From Thermoproteus tenax Kra 1 (GTDB taxonomy: Archaea > Thermoproteota > Thermoprotei > Thermoproteales > Thermoproteaceae), in NCBI RefSeq assembly GCF_000253055.1, contig NC_016070.1:1590001-1622000 (forward strand): DNA of 32,000 bases. Reading direction: 5' to 3'. The translations under genes were made by a program, and so were the position numbers. The notes beneath the pieces are model-generated. The model searched no databases. It was not told the DNA's origin and saw nothing but the letters and a program-made list of their open reading frames with translations. How positions within the stretch are numbered: the stretch's first letter is position 1; every line of letters starts with the position of its first letter. This document shows, in pieces, positions 15,629 to 31,993 of this stretch.

Positions 15629-15878
15629 ACGAGCCCCTCTCCGCCTTAGGCGGGGTCTGTGCTGTGGGAGTCTCGCCCGTTGCTCCTCGCCGGGACTAAT
15701 GGGCCGCTCCTGGCGAGCATCACGGCGGGGCGTCCCCTCGCCTGGGCCCTCGGCCGTTGACCCGCCCTCGCTGTATTGAACGCGCCACTGTTCAAATCTT
15801 TCTTCACTAACTCTGCCATGAGAGGATATAGATGCCGACTTAAATTCATCCCCGCCTTGAGGGATATGGCTTGTTGTT
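15629..15878 (-). mobile_element. Element B: protein-less, hairpin-bounded GC-rich element related to the IS200/IS605-type element at 26907..28251
   Basis: Read on the minus strand: degenerate left-end hairpin (CCCTCAAGGCGGGG), TTTAAG..ATCTATAT, a 15-nt block CAGAGTTAGTGAAGA identical to element C, GCAACGGGCGAGACTCCCAC (15664-15683), and right-end hairpin 15639-15655 followed by GGGGCTCGT. It is collinear with element A over its whole length. Confidence 0.55.
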
Positions 15879-15933: not shown

Positions 15934-16347
15934 TCATGTAAGTCTCTTAAGCGCAAAGTTGGTTATAAGCCAAGGGTCGAAATCTCTCTCGGGATAGTAG
16001 GGGAGCCCTCGCGGCAGCGATTTCAAGGCCTTCTCTACCTCCTCCCTCTTTCCGTAGACTGCCACAACATATTCGCTGAGTCCCAACGGCGAGGTGGTAG
16101 CCACCGCGCTCTCTATTGAATCTTGTTGAGTCAAGTACATTAACGCAGATATACGGCTGTCTCTGGCCGGACCCTTCAGCGCATAGGCATACACAAGGGC
16201 TTGGAGCAGATATCTCCAGTCTCTGACGGCCTCGGGCCTCACCGCTATCGCCAACGCGCCGCTTCCCAAAGATGCCAAGATCTCCTTAGTCAAAGGCTCC
16301 GAGCTGACCAGGATCACCTCTATACACATATCGTTGCTACAAATCAC
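15934..16347 (-). CDS. Possible KEOPS subunit Cgi121-like protein
   Basis: 137 aa. The pattern VRPEAV..LLQALVYAYA...ARD..ISALMYLTQQDSIESAV...VVAVYG resembles the Cgi121 core. GTG start with TATA AATATAAAGG ~24 nt upstream. Confidence 0.4.
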   Translation of the reverse strand: MICSNDMCIEVILVSSEPLTKEILASLGSGALAIAVRPEAVRDWRYLLQALVYAYALKGPARDSRISALMYLTQQDSIESAVATTSPLGLSEYVVAVYGKREEVEKALKSLPRGLPYYPERDFDPWLITNFALKRLT

Positions 16348-20197: not shown

Positions 20198-20875
20198 TTA
20201 TCTCGAGGCCGCAGCCAGGCGTTCTAGCTCGTCCTTATGCCTTATTGCGTAACTCTTGGGGTCGTTGGATGCCGCAGCTATTATCTCGTCAGCGAGACAT
20301 TCCTCAATAGGCTTTGGATTGTTAAACGAGCATGCGCGGGCGCCTTCGGCTATCCAGTGGAGCGCCAGATCTAGCCTTCGTTGGGGCGAGACGTCCACAG
20401 AGACGGAGTAGGCGATACCGCCCATTATAATGCGCGTTATTTCCTCGCGGGGGGCCGCGTTTATTATAGCATCGATGTACACTTGTAGAGGATTCCTCTT
20501 AGTTTTATAATAAATTATGTCGAATGCCCTTTTCACTATGTTGTACGCCTTATGCTTCTTGCCCGCGTTTCTTCCGGGCCTCATCATTAGGTTTATTAGA
20601 CGCTCCACTATGGGGATCTGCGTCTTGCCGAACCTCCTATTCTGGAATCTGCCCTCTGTGTGCGGAAGAAGCACCGGCTTTAGGCAAATATATCTCCTCA
20701 ATCCAGGATCTTTCACTACTATATCGTCGTAAGTCCATTTGCCGAACAACAAGATTTGGCCTCCATCGTAGGTCCTAATAGCGCGGGGACATTCCTCAAC
20801 TAAGGGGACGTCCCCCACGTACTCAACGTGAGATCCCTTAGGCAATTGCTCGCCGAATATGATCGGCGAAGACAT
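20198..20875 (-). CDS. rps7: 30S ribosomal protein S7 (uS7)
   Basis: The archaeal uS7 pattern (LFGKW..., [39 protein letters not shown]) is present. TATA GTTTAAATATAG lies upstream. Confidence 0.85.
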
Positions 20876-21932: not shown

Positions 21933-22852
21933 CTGATGTATAGTTTGAAGGTATCGTTAACTCTTCTTATGGCCCTCCTCGTGCATAACAGAGCGCAGGC
22001 CCCGCAGCCTGTACAGCTCTCCAACAACTTGGGAGCTCCGCCTTTGTCCATAGCCAAGGCGTCGCACGAGGACAGAAAACAATCGCCGCATCTATCACAT
22101 AGGGACGGCTCCACTTCGAACTCACCCGCGAATAGCTTATAGTCGTAGCCAACGACTCTCTCTCTAAACAGCCTACACGGATCCCCCCTTCTATTGATAT
22201 CAACTATATAGCCTCCTAGCTCTATAAACCCATCGTCTGTGCCGCCCGTAGAGATGGCTATGACCGGGCCGGCCTTATAGCCGCCTATTAATATGCCCTT
22301 GGCTATCGCCACGGCCGGTATGGGCGGCATATGGACTGAAACAATTTCGCTTACGGCGTCCGGCATAAAGTACGTCGGAAGGACTTGATAGTCGGTCTTC
22401 TCCTCAACGGGGCTCTTCATGTATATATCGGACACAACTATTGGGACATCGTCCCTAAGCTTCAGCAAGTTATAGAGACAGGCAAAGAGGGGCAGATACT
22501 CCCTCCCGGCGCCCCCTGTGCGAACCCATCGCCGCGCCCTCAAATAGTTTTTATTGAACGTGGAGACTCTAAAGGGCCTGGGCAACGGCTCCTCTCCCTC
22601 GTATCCGATCGGGCTTTGGGTCTTTTCGGAGAGAGCTATTGCCTCCTCTAGGTCTCTAACGCAGGGGAGCTCCTGCGGGCACGGAGAGAGGAGCATGGCT
22701 CCCCAGATCCCCGATCTTCTCACGATGTCGATCCACTCATTGCGGAACTCTCCCAGCACCAATACCCTCCTAAATGTGATCGAGAGGCCGAGGGCTATGC
22801 CCAGAGCATGGAGGTTGCCCAGCTCCTTGCCCTTTATCACAAACTCTATCAT
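21929..22852 (-). CDS. Hypothetical protein with a C-terminal 2x[4Fe-4S] ferredoxin-like domain
   Basis: Two cysteine motifs, CDRCGDCFLSSC and CTGCGACALLC, in the last 60 aa. The N-terminal ~240 aa are not recognised. Overlaps both neighbours by 4 nt (operon). Confidence 0.6.
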   Translation of the reverse strand: MIEFVIKGKELGNLHALGIALGLSITFRRVLVLGEFRNEWIDIVRRSGIWGAMLLSPCPQELPCVRDLEEAIALSEKTQSPIGYEGEEPLPRPFRVSTFNKNYLRARRWVRTGGAGREYLPLFACLYNLLKLRDDVPIVVSDIYMKSPVEEKTDYQVLPTYFMPDAVSEIVSVHMPPIPAVAIAKGILIGGYKAGPVIAISTGGTDDGFIELGGYIVDINRRGDPCRLFRERVVGYDYKLFAGEFEVEPSLCDRCGDCFLSSCDALAMDKGGAPKLLESCTGCGACALLCTRRAIRRVNDTFKLYIR

Positions 22853-23349
22853 GGAACTAGCCGCAGCCTAACGACGACCTTCATCAGCGCCTTTTTCTCC
22901 GCCGGAAAGTCATCTAAGGGCCTTGGACCGTTCTGTCTCACCCAGAGGCAGTTCTCAGACAAGAATACGTTGCCCGTCTTTACGTCGAGCACGAGGGGGA
23001 ACATCTTGCAAGCCAGAGGCTTTTTCTCGTGTATCGTGCATTTTCTACTCTTTCTGTCGAAAAAGGGGCACCACCCATCGATTATCCATCTGTAGATCTC
23101 TACTCCGTTAACTTCGCCGAGCCTCTTGAAGCTCAACTTGAGCCCCCTCCGCTCGGCCTCCTCCTTAAGTCTAACCATCTCCTCATGGAAGATGGTAGGC
23201 ATCTCCTCCTCTGATTCAAAACGGCAACAGTCCGCGGGACACCCGATGGGACATTCAAACGGCACTGCACAGTTTTTAAAGCTGTTTATAACCGTAAGCC
23301 TCGCCCTTAGGGCGGAGTGGGGGTTACAACAGAAAGCCCCGCCCTTCAA
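22849..23349 (-). CDS. YkgJ-family (UPF0153/COG0727) Cys-cluster protein
   Basis: CPIGCPADCC plus CPFF..KCTIHEKKPLACKMFP motifs. The track start (TTG 23349) lies inside the left-end hairpin of element A. The alternative start GTG 23265 (MPFECPIG...) has TATA TTATAAA ~22 nt upstream. Confidence 0.7.
   Translation of the reverse strand: MKGGAFCCNPHSALRARLTVINSFKNCAVPFECPIGCPADCCRFESEEEMPTIFHEEMVRLKEEAERRGLKLSFKRLGEVNGVEIYRWIIDGWCPFFDRKSRKCTIHEKKPLACKMFPLVLDVKTGNVFLSENCLWVRQNGPRPLDDFPAEKKALMKVVVRLRLVP
23290..23323 (+). repeat. Solo left-end remnant (second tandem copy of the element end)
   Basis: TTTAT-AACCGTAAGCCTCGCCCTTAGGGCGGAG parallels TTAC-AACAGAAAGCCCCGCCCTTCAAGCGGGG immediately downstream and the left ends of element C and the TnpB IS. 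Confidence 0.5.
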
Positions 23350-23580
23350 GCGGGGATGGATTTAAGCTATATTTTTTCATGGCGGAGCGGTGAAGAGAGC
23401 TGAGGAAGGCTTAAATAGCGGTGCGCGCCATAAGACGGGGCGGGCCAACTTGCATCAACTCGTAAGATGGCCCTGGCGGGGGGACACCACAATGCCTGCT
23501 CCGTCGCGGCCCATAACCCCGGGCAACGGGCGAGACCCCCACGGTGGAGACCCCGCCCTTTAGGGCGGGGAGGGGGTCAC
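23328..23580 (+). mobile_element. Element A: protein-less, hairpin-bounded GC-rich element of the same family
   Basis: Starts after TTAC (23324-23327). It contains a left hairpin (23337-23355), TTTAAGC-TATATTTTTT, CATGGCGGAGCGGTGAAGA, GGGCAACGGGCGAGACCCCCAC (23521-23542), and a right hairpin CCCCGCCC-TTTA-GGGCGGGG (23551-23570). It ends GGGGGTCAC, as the TnpB IS ends GAGGGTCAC. Confidence 0.6.
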
Positions 23581-23930
23581 ATGCTTCCCGTCCGCCCTTG
23601 GGCACTCGCCCCAATAAATATGAGGGGGGCGCGGGAGCCCTAATGGGGCGCCATCGTTGCTTTCAATTACTGCATGCGCCTTTGCTCTAGATATAAACTG
23701 GCTTGAGGCCTAAGTAGTGCTAAATTCCTGTTATTATAGATCTTTGTAAAATATATTATTTACTTTTGTTTCTATATCTATATCTAAGACCATTTACCTA
23801 TTCCGCCTTCTCTGTAATTTTTTGAATATAATAATTAATTTTTTAAGTTTCATAATCTCTCGTTACGTATATAAATATTACTTTATAAAAGGTTGGAGAA
23901 AAGTTTAAATCTAAGCTAAATCGTTAACTC

Positions 23931-23981
23931 ATGCCCAAGAAAGAGCAGAAGAAGGAGGAGAAAAAAGAGCAGAAGAAGTGA
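23931..23981 (+). CDS. Candidate 16-codon leaderless micro-ORF (MPKKEQKKEEKKEQKK)
   Basis: ATG..TGA with TATA-like AAGTTTAAAT (23901-23910) centred ~25 nt upstream, the same spacing as bona fide genes in this window. It lies in a ~470-bp gene-free gap. No homology recognised. Confidence 0.25.
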   Translation: MPKKEQKKEEKKEQKK

Positions 23982-24030
23982 AGGCCTAGGCTATATAAAA
24001 ACGGAACTCTCTTCTTTTAACCTCCTTTTT

Positions 24031-24083
24031 GGGCGGGCCAGCCGCGTGTCAATAGCTGACACAGGCGAGGGGGTGTCGGGCTC
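24031..24083 (+). ncRNA. Candidate small structured RNA between two TATA boxes upstream of rpl14e
   Basis: A GC-rich 53-nt block sits in AT-rich surroundings. TATA CTATATAAAA (23991-24000) lies ~30 nt upstream. It has a hairpin GTGTCA-ATAGC-TGACAC (24046-24062) extended by GCC/GGC. rpl14e has its own TATA downstream at ~24087-24097. Confidence 0.2.
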
Positions 24084-24116
24084 TAAATTTTAAAAACACT
24101 GCCCTTTGCCCCATGT

Positions 24117-24422
24117 ATGCCTAAGGTGATCGAGGTGGGCAGAATAGTTGTGAAGGTCTCTGGCAGAGAGGCCGGGAGAAAGGCCGTAGTCGTGGATCTA
24201 GTTGATGAGAACTATGTCGTAATCACAGGCCCGCGCAGCGTAAGCGGCGTAAAAAGAAGAAGGGTGAACATAAACCATATAGAGCCGACGGACAAGAAGA
24301 TAGATATAAAGAGGGGGGCGAGCGATGAGGACGTAGTAAAGGCGCTTGAGGCTGCCAACTTAATCGAATACATGAAAGAGAAGATAAAGCCAAAATTCGA
24401 GGGGGTTTTATCGGAGATTTAA
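24117..24422 (+). CDS. rpl14e: 50S ribosomal protein L14e
   Basis: KOW-like VGRIVVKVSGREAGRKAVVVD. 101 aa. Leaderless spacing to TATA ATTTTAAAAA. Confidence 0.9.
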   Translation: MPKVIEVGRIVVKVSGREAGRKAVVVDLVDENYVVITGPRSVSGVKRRRVNINHIEPTDKKIDIKRGASDEDVVKALEAANLIEYMKEKIKPKFEGVLSEI

Positions 24423-24430
24423 GGTGCTTT

Positions 24431-25122
24431 ATGACCGCGCTCCCCGCCCTAAAGGGCGGGGTTTCCCCTCGCCCACGCCTTCATCGGCATCCAGGATACC
24501 TCCGGCGCGGGCTCATCGGGCATGGGGCCGGGCGGCGCTCGGCCCTCCTCGGGGCAGAGCACCTCATTTGGTGAGGCGTGTGCGCATATTGGGTCTTCCG
24601 CCTGCATCTGCGACGACCCCCGCTCATGCGGGATCCGCACCGTGGGGGTCTCGGCCGTTGCCCTCCTCGGGGTTAATCCGCTCGACATCGGATAACGGGC
24701 CTCTATCCTCCCCGGCGCTCTGAGGCCGGCCCTCGCGGCGTTCAGCGCGACGTTGAGCCTCCTGCGGAGCACGAGCCCTCTACAGCCCCGTACGTCGACT
24801 ACGTGCTCGCTCTGCCGCCCGTGCGCTACGTCCTCGGGTATCCTGCGTATACCTCAGAGACCCCCGATTCCCGCAACATCCCGGCGAGCCCTCTGACCGC
24901 CGTATTTCGATAGTGCCTCAACCTCTACCATCCTCCAGAGCGCCTTTAGGTAGAGGCGGCGCCACCCCGCTCATTGCCGATGCCGCTCTTCGTTTTGCCC
25001 CCGCGTGGCGCCCGCCCTTGCCCCTCCCTCTCCTTTCCTCGGTCCTCTTCACTAACTCTGTCATAGAAAAAATATAGATGTTCGGCTTAAAACCTACCCC
25101 GTGAAGGGCGAGGCTTTCGGTT
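24431..25122 (-). mobile_element. Element C: 692-nt composite protein-less element filling the whole rpl14e-cbf5 spacer
   Basis: On the minus strand it starts after TTTAC (25127-25123). It has a left-end hairpin remnant, TTTTAAG..ATCTATAT, and CAGAGTTAGTGAAGA (25046-25060, identical to B). An internal right-end-like block GGGCAACGGCCGAGACCCCCAC (24642-24663) plus a hairpin follows. The last 182 nt resemble the tnpB 3' end and right end of the intact IS. The terminal hairpin is 24442-24461 and the element ends GGTCAT (24436-24431). All ORFs inside are R/P/G/A-rich and not protein-like. Confidence 0.6.
25067..25077 (+). promoter_or_regulatory. TATA box (AAAAAATATAG) inside element C, facing outward and driving cbf5
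   Basis: It is centred ~25-30 nt upstream of the cbf5 GTG (25101). The same box in the same position relative to the element end is found at 23367-23377 (minus strand) upstream of the ykgJ TTG. Confidence 0.6.
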
Positions 25123-26117
25123 GTAAACGAGATATTTATGTAAAGACGCCAAATGAGACAACCGACCCTCAATGGGGCAGGCCGCCCGCCGATAGGCCGA
25201 TCGAAGAATACATAAGATATTCTTTTGTAGTACTGGACAAACCGCGCGGCCCCTCGAGCCACGAGACAGTCGCTTGGCTCAAAAGAATCTTGAACGTGGA
25301 GGTCGCAGGCCACTCGGGCACTTTAGATCCCAACGTGTCTGGGGTCTTGCCTGTCGCCATCGCCGAGGGCACCAAGGCGCTAATGGCCCTCTCTAGAGCC
25401 GACAAAACCTATGTCGCCGTCGCCAAGTTTCACGGAGACGTCGACGAGGCTAAGCTGAGGGAGGTTCTCGCCTACTTCACAGGCGCCATTTATCAGAGAC
25501 CGCCTCTAAGGTCTGCGGTCAAAAGACAACTCCGCGTGAGGCATGTGTACTCCTTGGAGCTACTGGAGCTGGACGGCAGATACGCGCTCCTCAGAATGCA
25601 TGTAGAGGCGGGGACCTACGCCAGGAAGCTCATCCACGATATAGGCGAAGTGCTGGGCGTGAGCGCCAACATGAGAGAGCTGAGGAGGGTCGGAGTCGGG
25701 TGTTTTACAGAGGAAGAGGCCTTCACGCTACAGGATATAGCAGATGCAGTATACATATGGAGGAACTACGGCGATGACACTGTACTGAGGCAGATAGTGA
25801 AGCCCATAGAGGAGATAGCAAGAGGGGTCGCCAAGATCTGGATAAAGGACGGCGCCGTAGATGCTGTGTGTCATGGCGCTCCTCTGGCGGCCCCCGGCGT
25901 CGTCAAGTTCGAGGAGCCCTTCCAGAGGGGCGACCTTGTTGCATATTTCACGCTCAAGGGCGAGCTAGTCGCCCTGGGGAGGGCCTTGATGTCCAGCGAT
26001 GAACTGAAAAGAGCGGACAAAGGGCTTGTGGCTAGAACAGACCGCGTTGTCATGCGGCCCGGCACCTATCCCTCAATATGGAGGAGAAAACCTAATAAAT
26101 TAGAGGGAAGATCCTAG
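25101..26117 (+). CDS. cbf5: H/ACA RNP pseudouridine synthase Cbf5 (TruB family) with C-terminal PUA domain
   Basis: [11 protein letters not shown] catalytic Asp motif. [19 protein letters not shown] is collinear with archaeal Cbf5 N-termini. PUA-like C-terminus. The GTG start and first 7 codons lie inside the left end of element C. Confidence 0.9.
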
Positions 26118-26413: not shown

Positions 26414-26910
26414 GAAGATACGTAGTACTAGGGCTACTAGATGGAATTATCACCGCCGTCAGCTTGACCTCGGGCCTGCTAGTAAGAGGCCACGCGTTGC
26501 GCATCAGCGAGGCGCTATCGATTGCAGTGGTCGTGGCTACGATAAATTCGCTCACGAGCTTTATAGCCGAGTACTCCCATCAAAGGGATCTGCTCAGAGA
26601 CCTTGAATACAAAGTGTATCTAAAATCAACTGGACATATTTTTAAAACGCTGGTACATAGGAGGGCTCTGTTCAACTCAGCCCGCTCGTCTCTGTATAAC
26701 TTCCTCTCGTCGGCTGCGGGCGCTCTATCGGTGTTGGTGCCCGCCTCGGTCAAAAGCGAATACGGCCTGTATGCCCTAGCCGCAGTGGCTTTTCTAGTAT
26801 CAGTTGTATTGTCTAAGAACCTAGTCGAGTTCGGGGAATGGCTTCTGATGGTGTGCGTCTCTGCGCTGATAGGGCTGGCGGTAGGTCTCCTCTTCCCCTT
26901 AGCTGTGTGA
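26410..26910 (+). CDS. Short VIT1/CCC1-like membrane protein
   Basis: VVLGLLDGIITAVSLTSGLLV N-terminal motif and hydrophobic C-terminal helices. Its TGA stop (26908-26910) lies in the terminal nucleotides of the TnpB IS. Confidence 0.5.
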   Translation: MRRYVVLGLLDGIITAVSLTSGLLVRGHALRISEALSIAVVVATINSLTSFIAEYSHQRDLLRDLEYKVYLKSTGHIFKTLVHRRALFNSARSSLYNFLSSAAGALSVLVPASVKSEYGLYALAAVAFLVSVVLSKNLVEFGEWLLMVCVSALIGLAVGLLFPLAV

Positions 26911-27100
26911 CCCTCTCCCCGCCCTAAAGGGCGGGGCTTCCCCCGTTCACCCGGCCTTTGCGGCTCGGGCTCATGTGGGGGTTCTGGGCGGGGTCACGGC
27001 GCCCCATCCCCGGCCTCTCGTTAAGGCCAGGGCTATGTTGATCGCCGCGTTTAAGTCTCTGTTGTATCTAAGTCCACATCTTGGGCACCTAAACTCTCTA
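26891..27100 (-). ncRNA. Predicted omega (right-end) RNA of the TnpB element, including ~16 nt of flanking guide
   Basis: Inferred by analogy with characterised TnpB systems, where the RNA spans the tnpB 3' end, the right-end hairpin and the flank. Here that covers the GC-rich tnpB 3' end, hairpin 26917-26936 and flank 26906-26891. The 5' limit is arbitrary. Confidence 0.3.
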
Positions 27101-28251
27101 CCTTTCACCTCATCAACGGTGAATCCGCACCTATGGCATGTTCTACTGGTGTTCTTCGGCTTTACGTACACAATCGGTATTCCGCTGAGGAGCGCTTTGT
27201 ACTCAATGTACTTCTGGAGCTTCCTAAAGCTCCACGAGTGCAACCTCCTATTCAGTAGTTTGTTGTCTCCACTCATCCTATCTCTAATCCCCTCTAAGTC
27301 CTCCATGACGATGACTGGTTTGGGGAACTGCTTGGCATACTCAACAACCCCCTTAGCTATTTCGTGGAGCATCTGATTGACTGTTCTGCCCTCCTTACTG
27401 CCAATCCTCTTAACCAGGTCAAGTCTCTTCTTTCTCTGCAGGCTACGCCTAATGTGAGCGTATTTGCCGCGCACAAACCTAATCCTCTGCCCACCCCAGA
27501 ACTGCCCCCTCATTGGCCTGCTCGGGCTGTCCCTAGATATGGCCGCGGCCGCAACTGCGTTCCACTCGCCGAGGTCTACGCCTATGAGCGTCTTCGCCTC
27601 CTCAGCACCGTAGGTGACAACGTTCTTCTTAATCTTGAAGTGAGCGAACCAAACGCCGTCTCTCTTAACCAGCTCCACACTGTCGAGCTCCCACAGCCCC
27701 TGCAGGGTCTCCTCAATGAACTGCTTCTGTCTGCTACCGAAAGCTAGTGGTAGCGCTATCCTAACACCTCTTCTCAAGCTAACGACAAGCCAGTAAGGAG
27801 TTAGCTTAGTGCTGGACTTATCGAGCTTGAACGCCCTCCTATCTAGACGAATAGATACCCTCTTAACCGCTGGCCTATCAGCCTTGGCTCTGCCCTCTGC
27901 CTTACGCTCACTAAAGCTCTTGAGAATCTCAACGGCCTTGTCCCTCGCAGTCTGTATCAGCGCAGTGTTTAGGCTAAACCTCTTTTTGGCTTCCTCATAC
28001 GTTAGCTCGTGAAGCTTCGTCTTCGACGTGATGCCGAAGCCCACATACCATCTAACCAACTTGAGGTACTCTTCAAGAGCTCTGTTGAGCTCAAGGGTCT
28101 TGCCCTTGTTAGGCTCAATCACCTTTCCAACAACCGTGAGAACGACCGAGGTCATAGGGGAACATCCCCTCATAGATCGAGTTCAACGGTCAACCTAAAA
28201 GCTTAACGCCGCATAGTGCCATCCCCGCCCTAAAGGGCGAGGTTTTCAGAT
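26907..28251 (-). mobile_element. IS200/IS605-family insertion sequence carrying only tnpB (IS1341-like), 1345 bp
   Basis: Left-end hairpin at 28223-28242, preceded on the minus strand by TTAT (28255-28252). Right-end hairpin CCCCGCCC-TAAA-GGGCGGGG at 26917-26936, followed by the terminal GGTCAC (26912-26907). No tnpA and no terminal inverted repeats or target duplication, as expected for this family. Confidence 0.8.
26971..28173 (-). CDS. tnpB: TnpB (IS605 OrfB-type RNA-guided endonuclease), apparently intact
   Basis: RuvC-I D (IGVDLGEWN), RuvC-II E (VIVMEDLEG), Zn ribbon CHRCG..(x13)..CPRCG, RuvC-III D (YNRDLNAAINIA). The probable true start is the second Met (MTSVVLTV, 28155). Confidence 0.9.
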   Translation of the reverse strand: MRGCSPMTSVVLTVVGKVIEPNKGKTLELNRALEEYLKLVRWYVGFGITSKTKLHELTYEEAKKRFSLNTALIQTARDKAVEILKSFSERKAEGRAKADRPAVKRVSIRLDRRAFKLDKSSTKLTPYWLVVSLRRGVRIALPLAFGSRQKQFIEETLQGLWELDSVELVKRDGVWFAHFKIKKNVVTYGAEEAKTLIGVDLGEWNAVAAAAISRDSPSRPMRGQFWGGQRIRFVRGKYAHIRRSLQRKKRLDLVKRIGSKEGRTVNQMLHEIAKGVVEYAKQFPKPVIVMEDLEGIRDRMSGDNKLLNRRLHSWSFRKLQKYIEYKALLSGIPIVYVKPKNTSRTCHRCGFTVDEVKGREFRCPRCGLRYNRDLNAAINIALALTRGRGWGAVTPPRTPT

Positions 28252-28255
28252 ATAA

Positions 28256-28650
28256 CGAAGACGGCGCGGGAAAGAGGAACTAACGCCAGAGCCCAAGCAG
28301 TCGTTAAGAGGGGCAGGTCTCGCCCGACTTCCGGCACCGAAACTCTAGTGAGACTAATTCCAGCGAGGTGGCTCACCTTTGGATTTCTATTCTCGCACCA
28401 CATCTGACTTTCAGGGCCGAGATAGGCCGGATGGGGCGCGAAAAAGCGCGGGACAATTGAGAGAGCCGCGGACGGGGGAGGTAATGAAGAGGGAGTATTT
28501 ATCCGTCCGCTCCGGCGCGACCGGTCTCCCTCGCCTCTGCTACGTCCGTTGAGGCGTCCAGCGGGGATAGGCTCGGGGCCCTCAGAGGGGCCGAGCGCCG
28601 CGAGGGCTCCAGAGGCACGCTGTCTTTTTAAACATCCCCGAGGGCAGTTC
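28256..28650. other. GC-rich, highly structured non-coding island of unknown function (candidate ncRNA gene or fourth decayed family member)
   Basis: About 390 nt with no credible ORF. It contains many local hairpins, e.g. GCGGACGG..27 nt AU-rich loop..CCGTCCGC (28468-28510) and GCTCGG..CCGAGC (28571-28596). On the minus strand it has a TTTAAAAAG TATA box at ~28626-28634 next to CCCTCGGGGATG, which resembles the left end of element B. Confidence 0.3.
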
Positions 28651-28652
28651 CT

Positions 28653-29111
28653 ATGTCTACTCTGCCAATAGAGTATATCCGCATGTCGAGGATGTTTAGG
28701 GAGGTCGTTGAGGGCAAAGAAATAGTATCGTTTGAGGTGCCCACCCATAAGTTCTTCGCCAGGAACGAGATCCCCTACCTCTCCATGGTGTTAGACTACG
28801 ATGTGAGAAAGCTGGAGAACATGATATCTGACATGAAGTATGGAAGAGTCGTCGTCGAGAAAATGTGGGCGATACGCCTCGACTCGGAGCTCTTTAGAGA
28901 GAACAAAAAGGTTTTACTGCCAGACTTAGGCTCGAACCATATAGATGGAAACATAGAGAGCGTCGAAAACGGACATGTGATAAATATAGACGTAAATGGA
29001 ATAAAGAGCTTAGTGAGAGTGGCCGTCTTCGATAGACAGAGCTTCAAGGAGGTGATAATAATAAGAAGGCCTCCTCTGCCGGCTCTCGTAAGGTACGCCG
29101 CGTTTATTTAG
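28653..29111 (+). CDS. Hypothetical protein
   Basis: 152 aa with AT-richer codon usage than its neighbours. TATA TTTTTAAAC lies ~22 nt upstream of the ATG. No family recognised. Confidence 0.45.
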   Translation: MSTLPIEYIRMSRMFREVVEGKEIVSFEVPTHKFFARNEIPYLSMVLDYDVRKLENMISDMKYGRVVVEKMWAIRLDSELFRENKKVLLPDLGSNHIDGNIESVENGHVINIDVNGIKSLVRVAVFDRQSFKEVIIIRRPPLPALVRYAAFI

Positions 29112-31472: not shown

Positions 31473-31919
31473 ATGGAGTTCCCCGATATAGAGCTGAGGG
31501 CCCACACAGGTGAGACCGTGAGGCCTAGGTCCTTTGAAAGGGCTGTAGTATATTTTTTCCCAAAGGCGTTCACATCGGGATGCACGCGCGAGGCCATACG
31601 ATTCAACGAGCTCTACGATGAGTTTAAGGCCTTGGGCGTGGAGATCTTCGGGATCTCTACAGATAAAATAGACACTTTAAGAAAGTTCGCCGAAAAGTAC
31701 CAGTTGAAGTTCAGATTGTTGAGCGATGAGGGAGGAAATCTGGCGAGACAGTTAGGCATACAGAGGCCCAGCGGCTCGGCCGAGAGGGTCACTTATATCT
31801 TGGAGAGAGGGCGCGTGGTGGAGGTTCTTCGCAATCTCAGAAGCGCCGATCAACACGCAGATAGAGCACTGGAGGTCGCCAGAAGGGCGTTCAAGGCAGG
31901 CGGACCCGGTGGGATTTGA
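31473..31919 (+). CDS. bcp: Peroxiredoxin, Bcp type
   Basis: FPKAFTSGCTRE peroxidatic-Cys context in a thioredoxin fold. The last 19 nt overlap the convergent tRNA-Arg. Confidence 0.85.
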   Translation: MEFPDIELRAHTGETVRPRSFERAVVYFFPKAFTSGCTREAIRFNELYDEFKALGVEIFGISTDKIDTLRKFAEKYQLKFRLLSDEGGNLARQLGIQRPSGSAERVTYILERGRVVEVLRNLRSADQHADRALEVARRAFKAGGPGGI

Positions 31920-31993
31920 ACCCACGACCTACGGCTCTCGGCGGCGCCGGCCACCGCAGGCCGCCGCTCTGATCCAGGCTGAGCTACGGGTCC
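31901..31993 (-). tRNA. tRNA-Arg(GCG) with a 17-nt canonical (37/38) intron
   Basis: Minus strand: GGACCCG-UA-GCUC-AGCCUGGAUCA-GAGC-G-GCGGC-CUGCGG[UGGCCGGCGCCGCCGAG]A-GCCGU-AGGUC-GUGGG-UUCAAAU-CCCAC-CGGGUCC-G. 93 nt = 76 + 17. Confidence 0.85.

Follow-up and report, generated by a model that had tools for sequence, protein, structure and literature searches.

We analyzed a 32,000-nt stretch of the Thermoproteus tenax Kra 1 genome (contig NC_016070.1, positions 1,590,001 to 1,622,000; below called the window, with positions counted from its first nucleotide). In it, a transposase-less mobile element, element B, separates rpl14e from the body of cbf5, the gene for the catalytic subunit of the H/ACA pseudouridylation complex. 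The Cbf5 open reading frame (ORF) at 25101-26117 is 100% identical to the 338-aa protein of T. tenax Kra1 (GenBank CCC82477; RefSeq WP_014127730), and from the length of this deposited protein it follows that the annotation already uses GTG 25101 as the start codon. A motif found next to this start, GGGCGRGGYTTWCNGWTRTAAM, has four copies in the window, while 0.01 are expected from 100 dinucleotide-preserving shuffles of the window, none of which reached four. One of them, at 28235-28256 (+), lies upstream of the gene for a TnpB protein of 400 aa (Pfam Cas12f1-like_TNB, E 2e-24). The repeat forms the left end (LE) of T. tenax elements that belong to the IS200/IS605 family. Self-comparison and self-BLAST revealed that the window holds one TnpB-only insertion sequence (IS) and several transposase-less derivatives similar to palindrome-associated transposable elements (PATEs) or to MITEs (transposable elements of the miniature, inverted-repeat type).

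An initial annotation of the window had noted two homologous stretches, one upstream of cbf5 and the other upstream of ykgJ, a CxxCxxCC gene on the opposite strand, and had proposed that the element end supplies a promoter and a start codon to both genes. Both stretches are indeed present, at 25067-25128 (+) and 23377-23322 (-), although the first 30 nt of the two ORFs are identical at 24/30 positions on recounting, not at 26/30.

To define the insertion, we compared the locus with four loci (L001-L004) from two Thermoproteus relatives, which share the gene order of the window (Endo_dU, Fer4, and CxxCxxCC on one strand; rpl14e, cbf5, and DUF211 on the other). In these loci, cbf5 begins at a GTG located 1 nt after the rpl14e stop codon. 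They read TGA-T-GTG TCT ATT TGT AGC AGA GAG ATC TAT GTA AAA (MSICSREIYVK) or TAG-T-GTG TCT ATT TGT... T. tenax keeps TAA-G-GTG CTT T (24420-24430), directly followed by the right end (RE) of element B, ATGACCGCGCTCCCCGCCC..., and the LE terminus, ...GGCTTTCGGTT (25122), is followed by GT AAA CGA GAT ATT TAT GTA AAG. Removal of exactly 24431-25122 yields GTG CTT TGT AAA CGA GAT ATT TAT GTA AAG, in frame and with no duplicated bases, and cbf5 without element B aligns contiguously with its relatives across the junction. Since the deletion restores an in-frame, contiguous alignment, we conclude that element B inserted 3' of TTTAC, 7 nt into the cbf5 ORF.

An independent Logan assembly (L182; SRR28178316), derived from another sequencing run, also has this junction between rpl14e and element B; thus, the insertion is no assembly artifact of the reference. 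L182 also shows that element B and a further copy, element A, are common to more than the reference strain. Compared to window positions 23550-24456, this contig differs at a handful of single bases, of which two are in the element A RE (loop and terminus), and it breaks inside hairpin repeats at both ends.

Within element B, the cbf5 frame is interrupted by a TAA at 25053; the first canonical start downstream of this stop is GTG 25101. The next one, TTG 25290, is codon 64, and its use would remove the conserved DKCLD region. Of the canonical in-frame starts, therefore, GTG 25101 alone retains the conserved N-terminus, and the start codon and the first seven residues are transposon derived, unless the gene is dead. 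This part of the initial annotation, that the element end gives cbf5 its start codon, is thus borne out. From the GT of codon 8 (25123) onward, the sequence is ancestral; the transposon-derived MKGEAFG stands in place of the ancestral ML that preceded the conserved C-[KS]-R-[DE]-I-Y. In line with this, homology to solved Cbf5 structures starts at residue 8, the conserved Cys (Pyrococcus furiosus Cbf5, 2hvy; E 1.5e-106). MKGEAF is absent from the N-termini of all 117 full-length, element-free orthologues, which read MS[LVI]C[SK]R.. or M[RK]C.. Together with the identification of the repeat as a mobile-element LE, this agrees with the earlier suggestion that the peptide shared by the two ORFs is element derived and ancestral to neither protein. 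Insertion of element B and replacement of the start codon at cbf5 are near certain.

Loss of the native start and of the operon context would also be expected of an inactivated cbf5, a pseudogene that has not yet decayed and in which the ORF opened by the GTG is fortuitous. At least one archaeon, Haloferax volcanii, can do without Cbf5. However, the 338-codon ORF is intact and has all four Cbf5 domains, DKCLD, TruB_N, TruB_C_2, and PUA, each above the Pfam cut-off and together spanning residues 11-316. Moreover, it is no more diverged from outgroups than the relatives are: T. tenax Cbf5 is 71% identical to Pyrobaculum, compared to 72-76% for the relatives, and 62-64% identical to distant outgroups, equal to the relatives. 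Because the domains are intact and the outgroup distances resemble those of the relatives, cbf5 looks alive; the comparisons suggest no rate acceleration and a gene that is still constrained. A very recent hit is also hard to reconcile with element B itself, whose LE region shares 74-79% identity with those of copies A and C and whose decayed hairpin gives it an old, degenerate look. The same insertion is also present in the second, slightly diverged dataset, L182. Finally, the in-frame start is located exactly where a TATA-like box predicts the transcription start site (TSS). We therefore regard a dead cbf5 as very improbable.

GTG 25101 is in the loop of the degenerate LE hairpin of element B. 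According to RNA folding, this hairpin has 3+3 bp (z -0.3), in contrast to the intact 8-bp stem of element A. The 5' arm is 2-3 nt shorter in copy B (CCCCG-TGAAGGG versus CCCCGCTTGAAGGG), and this difference creates the GTG and weakens the hairpin. Within T. tenax, the same codon is TTG in copy A, TTG in a degenerate context in a third copy (element C), and CTA in the TnpB IS. GTG 25101 thus appears to be a copy-specific variant, the family having CTG or CTA and the sister copy A having TTG. The presumed hairpin-weakening deletion probably immobilized element B and left the 5' end of the mRNA unstructured; a transcript starting at GTG 25101 lacks the 5' arm of the hairpin and is predicted by RNA folding to be unstructured.

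Inside the element and at a promoter-like distance from GTG 25101, there is a core resembling an archaeal transcription factor B recognition element (BRE) and TATA box (AGAAAA + AATATAGA). AATATAGA begins 30 nt before the GTG, and AAAAAATATAG begins 30-34 nt upstream of it. At other first-in-operon genes of the window, TATA 8-mers start approximately 24-29 nt before the start codon, and similar boxes are found at -28 of the gene at 15934-16347 (-) (AATATAAA) and at -28 of rps7 at 20198-20875 (-) (TTTAAATATAG). The TATA distance of about 20-30 nt given in the initial annotation was confirmed, with 30 nt for cbf5 and 24 nt for the extended ykgJ ORF, counted from the first base of AATATAG. No Shine-Dalgarno (SD)-like motif (GGAGG, GAGG, or GGTG) was detected within 40 nt upstream of GTG 25101. 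Sequence and spacing make the AAAAAATATAG box a plausible promoter, and, on balance, we lean toward use of an element-borne promoter by cbf5.

Several points weigh against this reading. For cbf5, the putative TSS and promoter, as well as initiation at GTG 25101, are inferred from sequence, as is the presumed order of events, with a GTG-making deletion after the insertion. The AAAAAATATAG box is A-rich, whereas most genes of the window have a T-rich box of the TTTAWA type, and it is at the far edge of the observed spacing range. A second TATA-like box, CTTAAAAC, is present 15 nt before the GTG; it is part of the inward promoter of the element and could compete with the outward box. Furthermore, the plus strand of element B lacks a strong T-run terminator (a single TTTT at 24993, no T5 or longer), which leaves room for read-through from rpl14e.

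The element might accordingly provide the start codon but not the promoter, with transcripts reading through from rpl14e or coming from another promoter and with internal initiation at GTG 25101. The ancestral 1-nt gap between rpl14e and cbf5 suggests one operon, and on such an RNA the GTG would be located in the loop of a weak hairpin. But the region upstream is devoid of the SD-like motifs named above, ribosomes starting at GTG 24424, the orphaned ancestral start, would stop at 24723, which is 378 nt before 25101 and in another frame, and a correctly spaced TATA-like box exists. We consider such internal initiation unlikely. The orphaned GTG 24424 opens a 99-codon, Pro/Arg/Ala-rich ORF through element B; since it ends at 24723 in a different frame, translation from this GTG through element B into cbf5 was dismissed. 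If rpl14e transcripts continue into the element, a junk peptide could arise from this ORF. Removal of element B at the RNA level, as an archaeal bulge-helix-bulge intron or an IStron/group I intron, was considered as well. Bulge-helix-bulge introns are known in cbf5 of other Crenarchaeota. We dropped this explanation because the cbf5 ORF requires no splicing and because no Rfam intron family matched at any threshold.

The following history would account for these data. Before the insertion, cbf5 started at the GTG located 1 nt after the rpl14e stop codon and presumably was cotranscribed with rpl14e. Insertion of the 692-bp element B 3' of TTTAC, 7 nt into cbf5, parted the body of the gene from its start. 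The inserted element likely had TTG or CTG in its loop, after which a small deletion would have made a better start. The 338-codon ORF can now begin only in the LE hairpin loop, at GTG 25101, with MKGEAFG as its transposon-derived N-terminus, and transcription would now proceed from the AAAAAATATAGA box, starting at the GTG or a few bases before it and producing a leaderless or near-leaderless mRNA. Overall, we think it likely that element B cut cbf5 from its native start and that the GTG 25101 start and the element promoter now serve the gene. The features of the locus and of the related elements are listed in Table 1.

Table 1. Positions of genes, element copies, and sequence signals in the T. 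tenax window
Feature	Position	Strand	Sequence or remark
rpl14e	24117-24422	+	Weak Pfam Ribosomal_L14e and KOW matches; synteny with L001-L004
Orphaned ancestral cbf5 start	24424-24430	+	GTG CTT T; 1 nt after rpl14e stop TAA 24420-24422
Element B, 692 bp, transposase-less	24431-25122	-	Between rpl14e and cbf5 body; self-BLAST
Element B RE terminus	24431 (on + strand)		...CGCGGTCAT
Element B LE terminus	25122		AACCGAAAGCC...
Element B, predicted empty site			GGTGCTTTGTAAACGAG
Outward TATA-like box, candidate promoter	25067-25078	+	AAAAAATATAGA; purine-rich AGAAAA before it; read from sequence
Element B LE on cbf5 strand	25084-25122	+	GGCTTAAAAC (inward TATA), hairpin CCTACCCC-GTGAA-GGGCGAGG, terminal CTTTCGGTT
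cbf5 ORF, 338 aa	25101-26117	+	Codons 1-7 (MKGEAFG) and first base of codon 8 element derived
Target GTAAA (TTTAC on element strand)	25123-25127	+	Immediately 5' of LE
GGGCGRGGYTTWCNGWTRTAAM copy	23285-23306	-	Motif search
GGGCGRGGYTTWCNGWTRTAAM copy	23323-23344	-	Motif search
GGGCGRGGYTTWCNGWTRTAAM copy	25106-25127	+	Motif search
GGGCGRGGYTTWCNGWTRTAAM copy	28235-28256	+	Motif search
LE pattern of T. tenax elements			GGGCGRGGYTTNCNGNTRTAA
Element A, 253-bp PATE	23328-23580	+	Intact LE hairpin CCCCGC/GCGGGG; RE ends ...GGGGGTCAC
Element C, short copy (~250 bp)	~15631-15878	-	Degenerate LE; faces 3' end of convergent gene
Older LE remnant	23290-23327	+	AACCGTAAGCCTCGCCCTTAGGGCGGAGTGGGGGTTAC; adjoins ykgJ promoter
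ykgJ-like CxxCxxCC gene	22849-23265	-	Homology-supported start GTG 23265; 138 aa
ykgJ N-terminal peptide implied by GTG 23265			(M)PFECPIGCPADCCR
TATA-like box of ykgJ	23284-23291	-	TTATAAAC; 26 nt upstream of GTG 23265
TnpB-only IS, full length (IS1341-type)	26907-28251	-	tnpB 26971-28173; Pfam, repeats, empty-site reconstruction
TnpB IS LE			TTAT, then ATCTGAAAACCTCGCCCTTTAGGGCGGGGATGG...
TnpB IS RE			...GAAGCCCCGCCCTTTAGGGCGGGGAGAGGGTCAC

Self-BLAST ties both ends of element B to elements A and C as well as to the TnpB IS, and the ends of the short elements match those of this IS. Elements A and B, like the TnpB IS, have same-strand palindromes (LE, ..CCTCGCCC-TTn-AGGGCGGGG..; RE, ..CCCCGCCC-TTT-AGGGCGGGG..), and the near-terminal hairpins at the two ends are in direct, not inverted, orientation. 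All four LE copies of the window adjoin TTAC or TTAT and all REs end with TCAC or TCAT, corresponding to the boundary rule that the RE ends with TCAY, the target is TTAY, and the target is not duplicated. A TTAC flank was also seen at LE copies of other archaea, for which the search pattern itself required TRTAA. The empty-site reconstructions of element B and of the TnpB IS both close in frame and without duplicated bases; the fact that the same rules rebuild the TnpB IS site in frame (GCT GT/A TAA) supports the boundary calls.

No Pfam match was obtained for any ORF of elements A, B, and C, and no tnpA is present within the window. An ORF just inside the LE (MTELVKR/MAELVKK) was rejected as a real protein; only six codons are conserved, and the frame is shifted in copy A. 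The T. tenax genome paper mentions five transposase ORFs only and does not mention these short elements (PMC3189178). Element A is a nested insertion, sitting at the internal TTAC of an older, truncated LE, which resembles the "mobile elements target mobile elements" pattern of PATEs (PMC3119063).

The TnpB IS changed the end of a neighboring gene. In the upstream gene, which encodes a 166-aa membrane protein of the same length as in the relatives, the stop codon (TGA, 26908-26910) and the base before it, the last one of the final Val codon, come from the RE of the IS. When the flanks are joined (26902-26910 and 28252-28255), the ancestral ...GCT GTA TAA is obtained, showing that the TTAT target overlapped the old stop codon. 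At the opposite flank of this IS, approximately 394 bp (28256-28652) separate its target from the next gene (28653-29111), while the spacer of the relatives is only 30 bp. This segment has no repeat match in the window, and an overlapping 172-aa ORF has no Pfam match.

We then considered ykgJ, to which the element was also thought to supply the start codon. Its orthologues are 138-139 aa long and begin with MPFECP, which corresponds to residue 29 of the T. tenax 166-codon ORF and thus to GTG 23265. The Pfam CxxCxxCC match begins at residue 35 of this 166-aa ORF (22849-23349, -), and only T. tenax has the 28 extra codons that begin at TTG 23349. The extension is probably an accidental open frame; according to RNA folding, TTG 23349 is buried in the intact 8-bp GC stem of copy A. 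The statement that both ORFs open inside the hairpin thus holds for the longest ORFs (GTG 25101, MKGEAFGC; TTG 23349, MKGGAFCC), but for ykgJ it holds for the longest ORF only, the homology-supported start being 28 codons downstream. The orthologue alignment places the ykgJ start at GTG 23265, which has its own TATA box at -26, so the element does not supply the start of this gene.

A further copy, which the initial annotation had missed, is located between element A and ykgJ; it is the truncated older LE at 23290-23327. The TTATAAAC box of ykgJ lies across the point where the old LE terminus (..GTT) meets its TTTAT target (ATAAAC), and ykgJ of the relatives has TTTTAAA or TTTTAATA at -24/-25. 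At the level of sequence, this comparison shows an older LE that landed in the ykgJ TATA box and a junction (..GTT/ATAAAC) that rebuilt a TATA-like TTATAAAC at -26, the putative promoter of the gene.

According to the initial annotation, the element acts generally as a mobile, outward-facing promoter and start-codon cassette that serves several genes, ykgJ included. Consistent with such a role, copies A and B have AAAAAATATAG in common, as well as an NTG codon in the same position, the frame is open into the downstream gene at both, and the spacing in copy A, 24 nt, is promoter-like. However, ykgJ orthologues start at MPFECP (GTG 23265) and have their own TATA box at -24 to -26, and the TTG of copy A is buried in its GC stem. 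Copy C faces the 3' end of a gene, and the LE of the TnpB IS, correctly described as carrying the same sequence without an adjacent gene, is separated from the next gene by approximately 400 nt, and this gene has a TATA box of its own; hence, neither faces a gene start.

The same question was addressed outside T. tenax by an LE scan over one genome per species, which retrieved at least 120 loci from other archaea and some chance bacterial ones; T. tenax was not among the matches listed, and all LE counts in this and the next paragraph apply to the matches listed. Many hyperthermophilic archaea (Desulfurococcales, Archaeoglobi, Caldisphaera, Caldivirga, Sulfolobales, and others) have the LE in an almost unchanged form. 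In 86 LE copies of other archaea, the codon at the GTG position is CTA (33 copies), CTG (31 copies), or, once, TTG, but GTG or ATG in none (0/86). An ORF of at least 100 aa opened by the LE was found in 0 of 72 usable copies of other archaea. When we analyzed the 45 LE copies with a gene boundary at most 400 nt downstream, 23 faced a gene start and 22 a gene end (p = 1.0), so the survey of copies abutting gene 5' ends that the annotation had proposed gave no excess among these copies from other archaea. A 4.5-fold excess of ORF starts at most 80 nt downstream of LEs over random positions was rejected as an artifact, since the elements are intergenic and the ratio of starts to ends is 23:22. 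A metagenome scan for the subfamily module TTCAC..CTCYGYCAT..ATATAG gave 56 matches, all of them chance matches with no hairpin and in unrelated contexts. A general cassette is thus extremely unlikely, and the data argue for a single rescue event at cbf5.

The scan also retrieved an approximately 43-nt single-hairpin unit, CTGACCTCCTCCCCGCCCTRAAGGGCGAGGCTTTCAGTTGTAA, which is almost invariant across several archaeal orders (L005-L124, e.g., L017, L028, L032, L047, and L071). It looks like an RE tail, a hairpin, and an LE tail, and is comparable to the 52-bp "terminal-only" PATEs of Haloquadratum. Such conservation is striking for a noncoding mobile repeat.

A narrower proposal is that the T. 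tenax PATE subfamily is preadapted for nondestructive insertion at the 5' ends of leaderless genes. Its LE may carry an outward or bidirectional TATA/BRE module and, in the loop of the hairpin, an NTG codon at leaderless spacing; landing at TTAC or TTAT in a TATA box or in the first codons may then restore a functional promoter and start. In that case, the present 5' ends of several T. tenax genes, not just that of cbf5, would derive from the subfamily. We regard this as improbable.

The T. tenax elements can be assigned to the PATE or IS200-IS605 (IS1341-type) group, since their sequences have every defining feature that we examined. PATEs are IS200/IS605-derived palindrome-associated elements of haloarchaea (Haloquadratum walsbyi, PMC3119063; Halobacterium VNG_R0052, PMC4615843). 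Shared features are near-terminal palindromes at both ends, the lack of inverted terminal repeats and of target duplication, insertion beside a short conserved oligonucleotide, ends in common with a TnpB-encoding IS of the same genome, and nested insertions. The hairpin and tail are nearly the same as well, as exemplified by GAAGGGCGAGGCTTTC in a Halobacterium primer (PMC4615843), and the same hairpin and tail, CTGACCTCCTCCCCGCCCTAAAGGGCGAGG, occur in a CRISPR spacer discussed in connection with mobile OrfB elements of the Sulfolobus plasmid pMGB1 (PMC3839810). PATEs have been described as expressed noncoding RNAs or as agents of genome plasticity, whereas the host here is a crenarchaeote with leaderless mRNAs. 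We found no report of a PATE end that gives a start codon and N-terminal residues to a conserved host gene.

The REs of elements A and B gave subthreshold matches to HgcC (RF00062), with 31.7 bits for A (23506-23593, +) and 23.9 bits for B (24423-24502, -), compared to a gathering threshold of 50; at this threshold, the Rfam covariance scan detected no HgcC in the window. Both REs also gave weak sot0042 hairpin matches. This suggests that they resemble the 3' regions of TnpB-associated RNAs. An RE-like tetraloop within HgcC has been noted (PMC4615843). The likeness to HgcC, sotRNA, and TnpB omega-RNA is of the RE halves, which match in the orientation of the element, and it concerns the RE, not the LE.

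That a transposon end takes over the expression of a neighboring gene is a known outcome for bacterial IS elements and MITEs. Outward-facing or hybrid promoters are provided by the bacterial insertion sequences IS1, IS2, IS5, IS10 (pOUT), IS256, and ISAba1. As in these cases, an element end upstream of cbf5 takes over transcription, here putatively. The bacterial promoters have sigma-70 -35/-10 boxes, and their target genes normally keep their own ribosome binding site and start codon. In contrast, cbf5 has a putative archaeal TATA/BRE promoter, its mRNA would be leaderless, and the element also donates the start codon and seven residues. Neisseria Correia elements and other bacterial MITEs carry promoters or alter the coding ends of their neighbors. 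They are similarly small, nonautonomous repeats that contribute expression signals at gene boundaries, but Correia elements belong to another superfamily (TA-duplicating, with inverted repeats), are bacterial, and are documented at many loci per genome, while here a single locus is demonstrated. The Salmonella IS200 has, like element B, a subterminal LE hairpin and belongs to the same IS family. Its hairpin is a terminator against impinging transcription and insulates the element, while the LE hairpin of element B is decayed and its loop is an outward-reading translation start. The cbf5 case is unusual in its archaeal leaderless setting, in the IS family involved, which is better known for insulating hairpins, in the donated start codon and residues, and in an ancestral start that is still visible 692 bp away.

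Two observations concern other parts of the window. Upstream of rpl14e, in an AT-rich spacer (approximately 23690-23990), there is a 16-codon, Lys/Glu-rich micro-ORF, MPKKEQKKEEKKEQKK (23931-23981, +), located approximately 28 nt downstream of an GTTTAAAT box. Its length and character are kept in two relatives (MPKKKEEKKEQQQQKK and MAKKKKEEKKEQQQKK; L001 3568-3618 and L003 ~2487-2537), and it may encode a real small protein. At 31899-31993 (-), Rfam detects a tRNA gene (56.8 bits); ARAGORN gives it an unusual anticodon of 4 bases, and it is probably an archaeal tRNA gene with an intron.

In summary, cbf5 of T. tenax provides a base-by-base case of a conserved housekeeping gene that survives a transposon hit in its first codons, here a gene for a catalytic subunit that was cut from a ribosomal-protein operon and from its start codon. 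For annotation, the finding accounts for the unusual N-terminus of WP_014127730 and speaks against a longer ykgJ. In addition, the ends, the TTAY target, and the TCAY boundary rule are now defined for a repeat family that is not in the T. tenax genome paper. If the promoter assignment is true, Cbf5 expression in T. tenax would be uncoupled from rpl14e and driven by transposon DNA, and the locus would represent an archaeal, leaderless-mRNA counterpart of the IS-borne promoters of bacteria.

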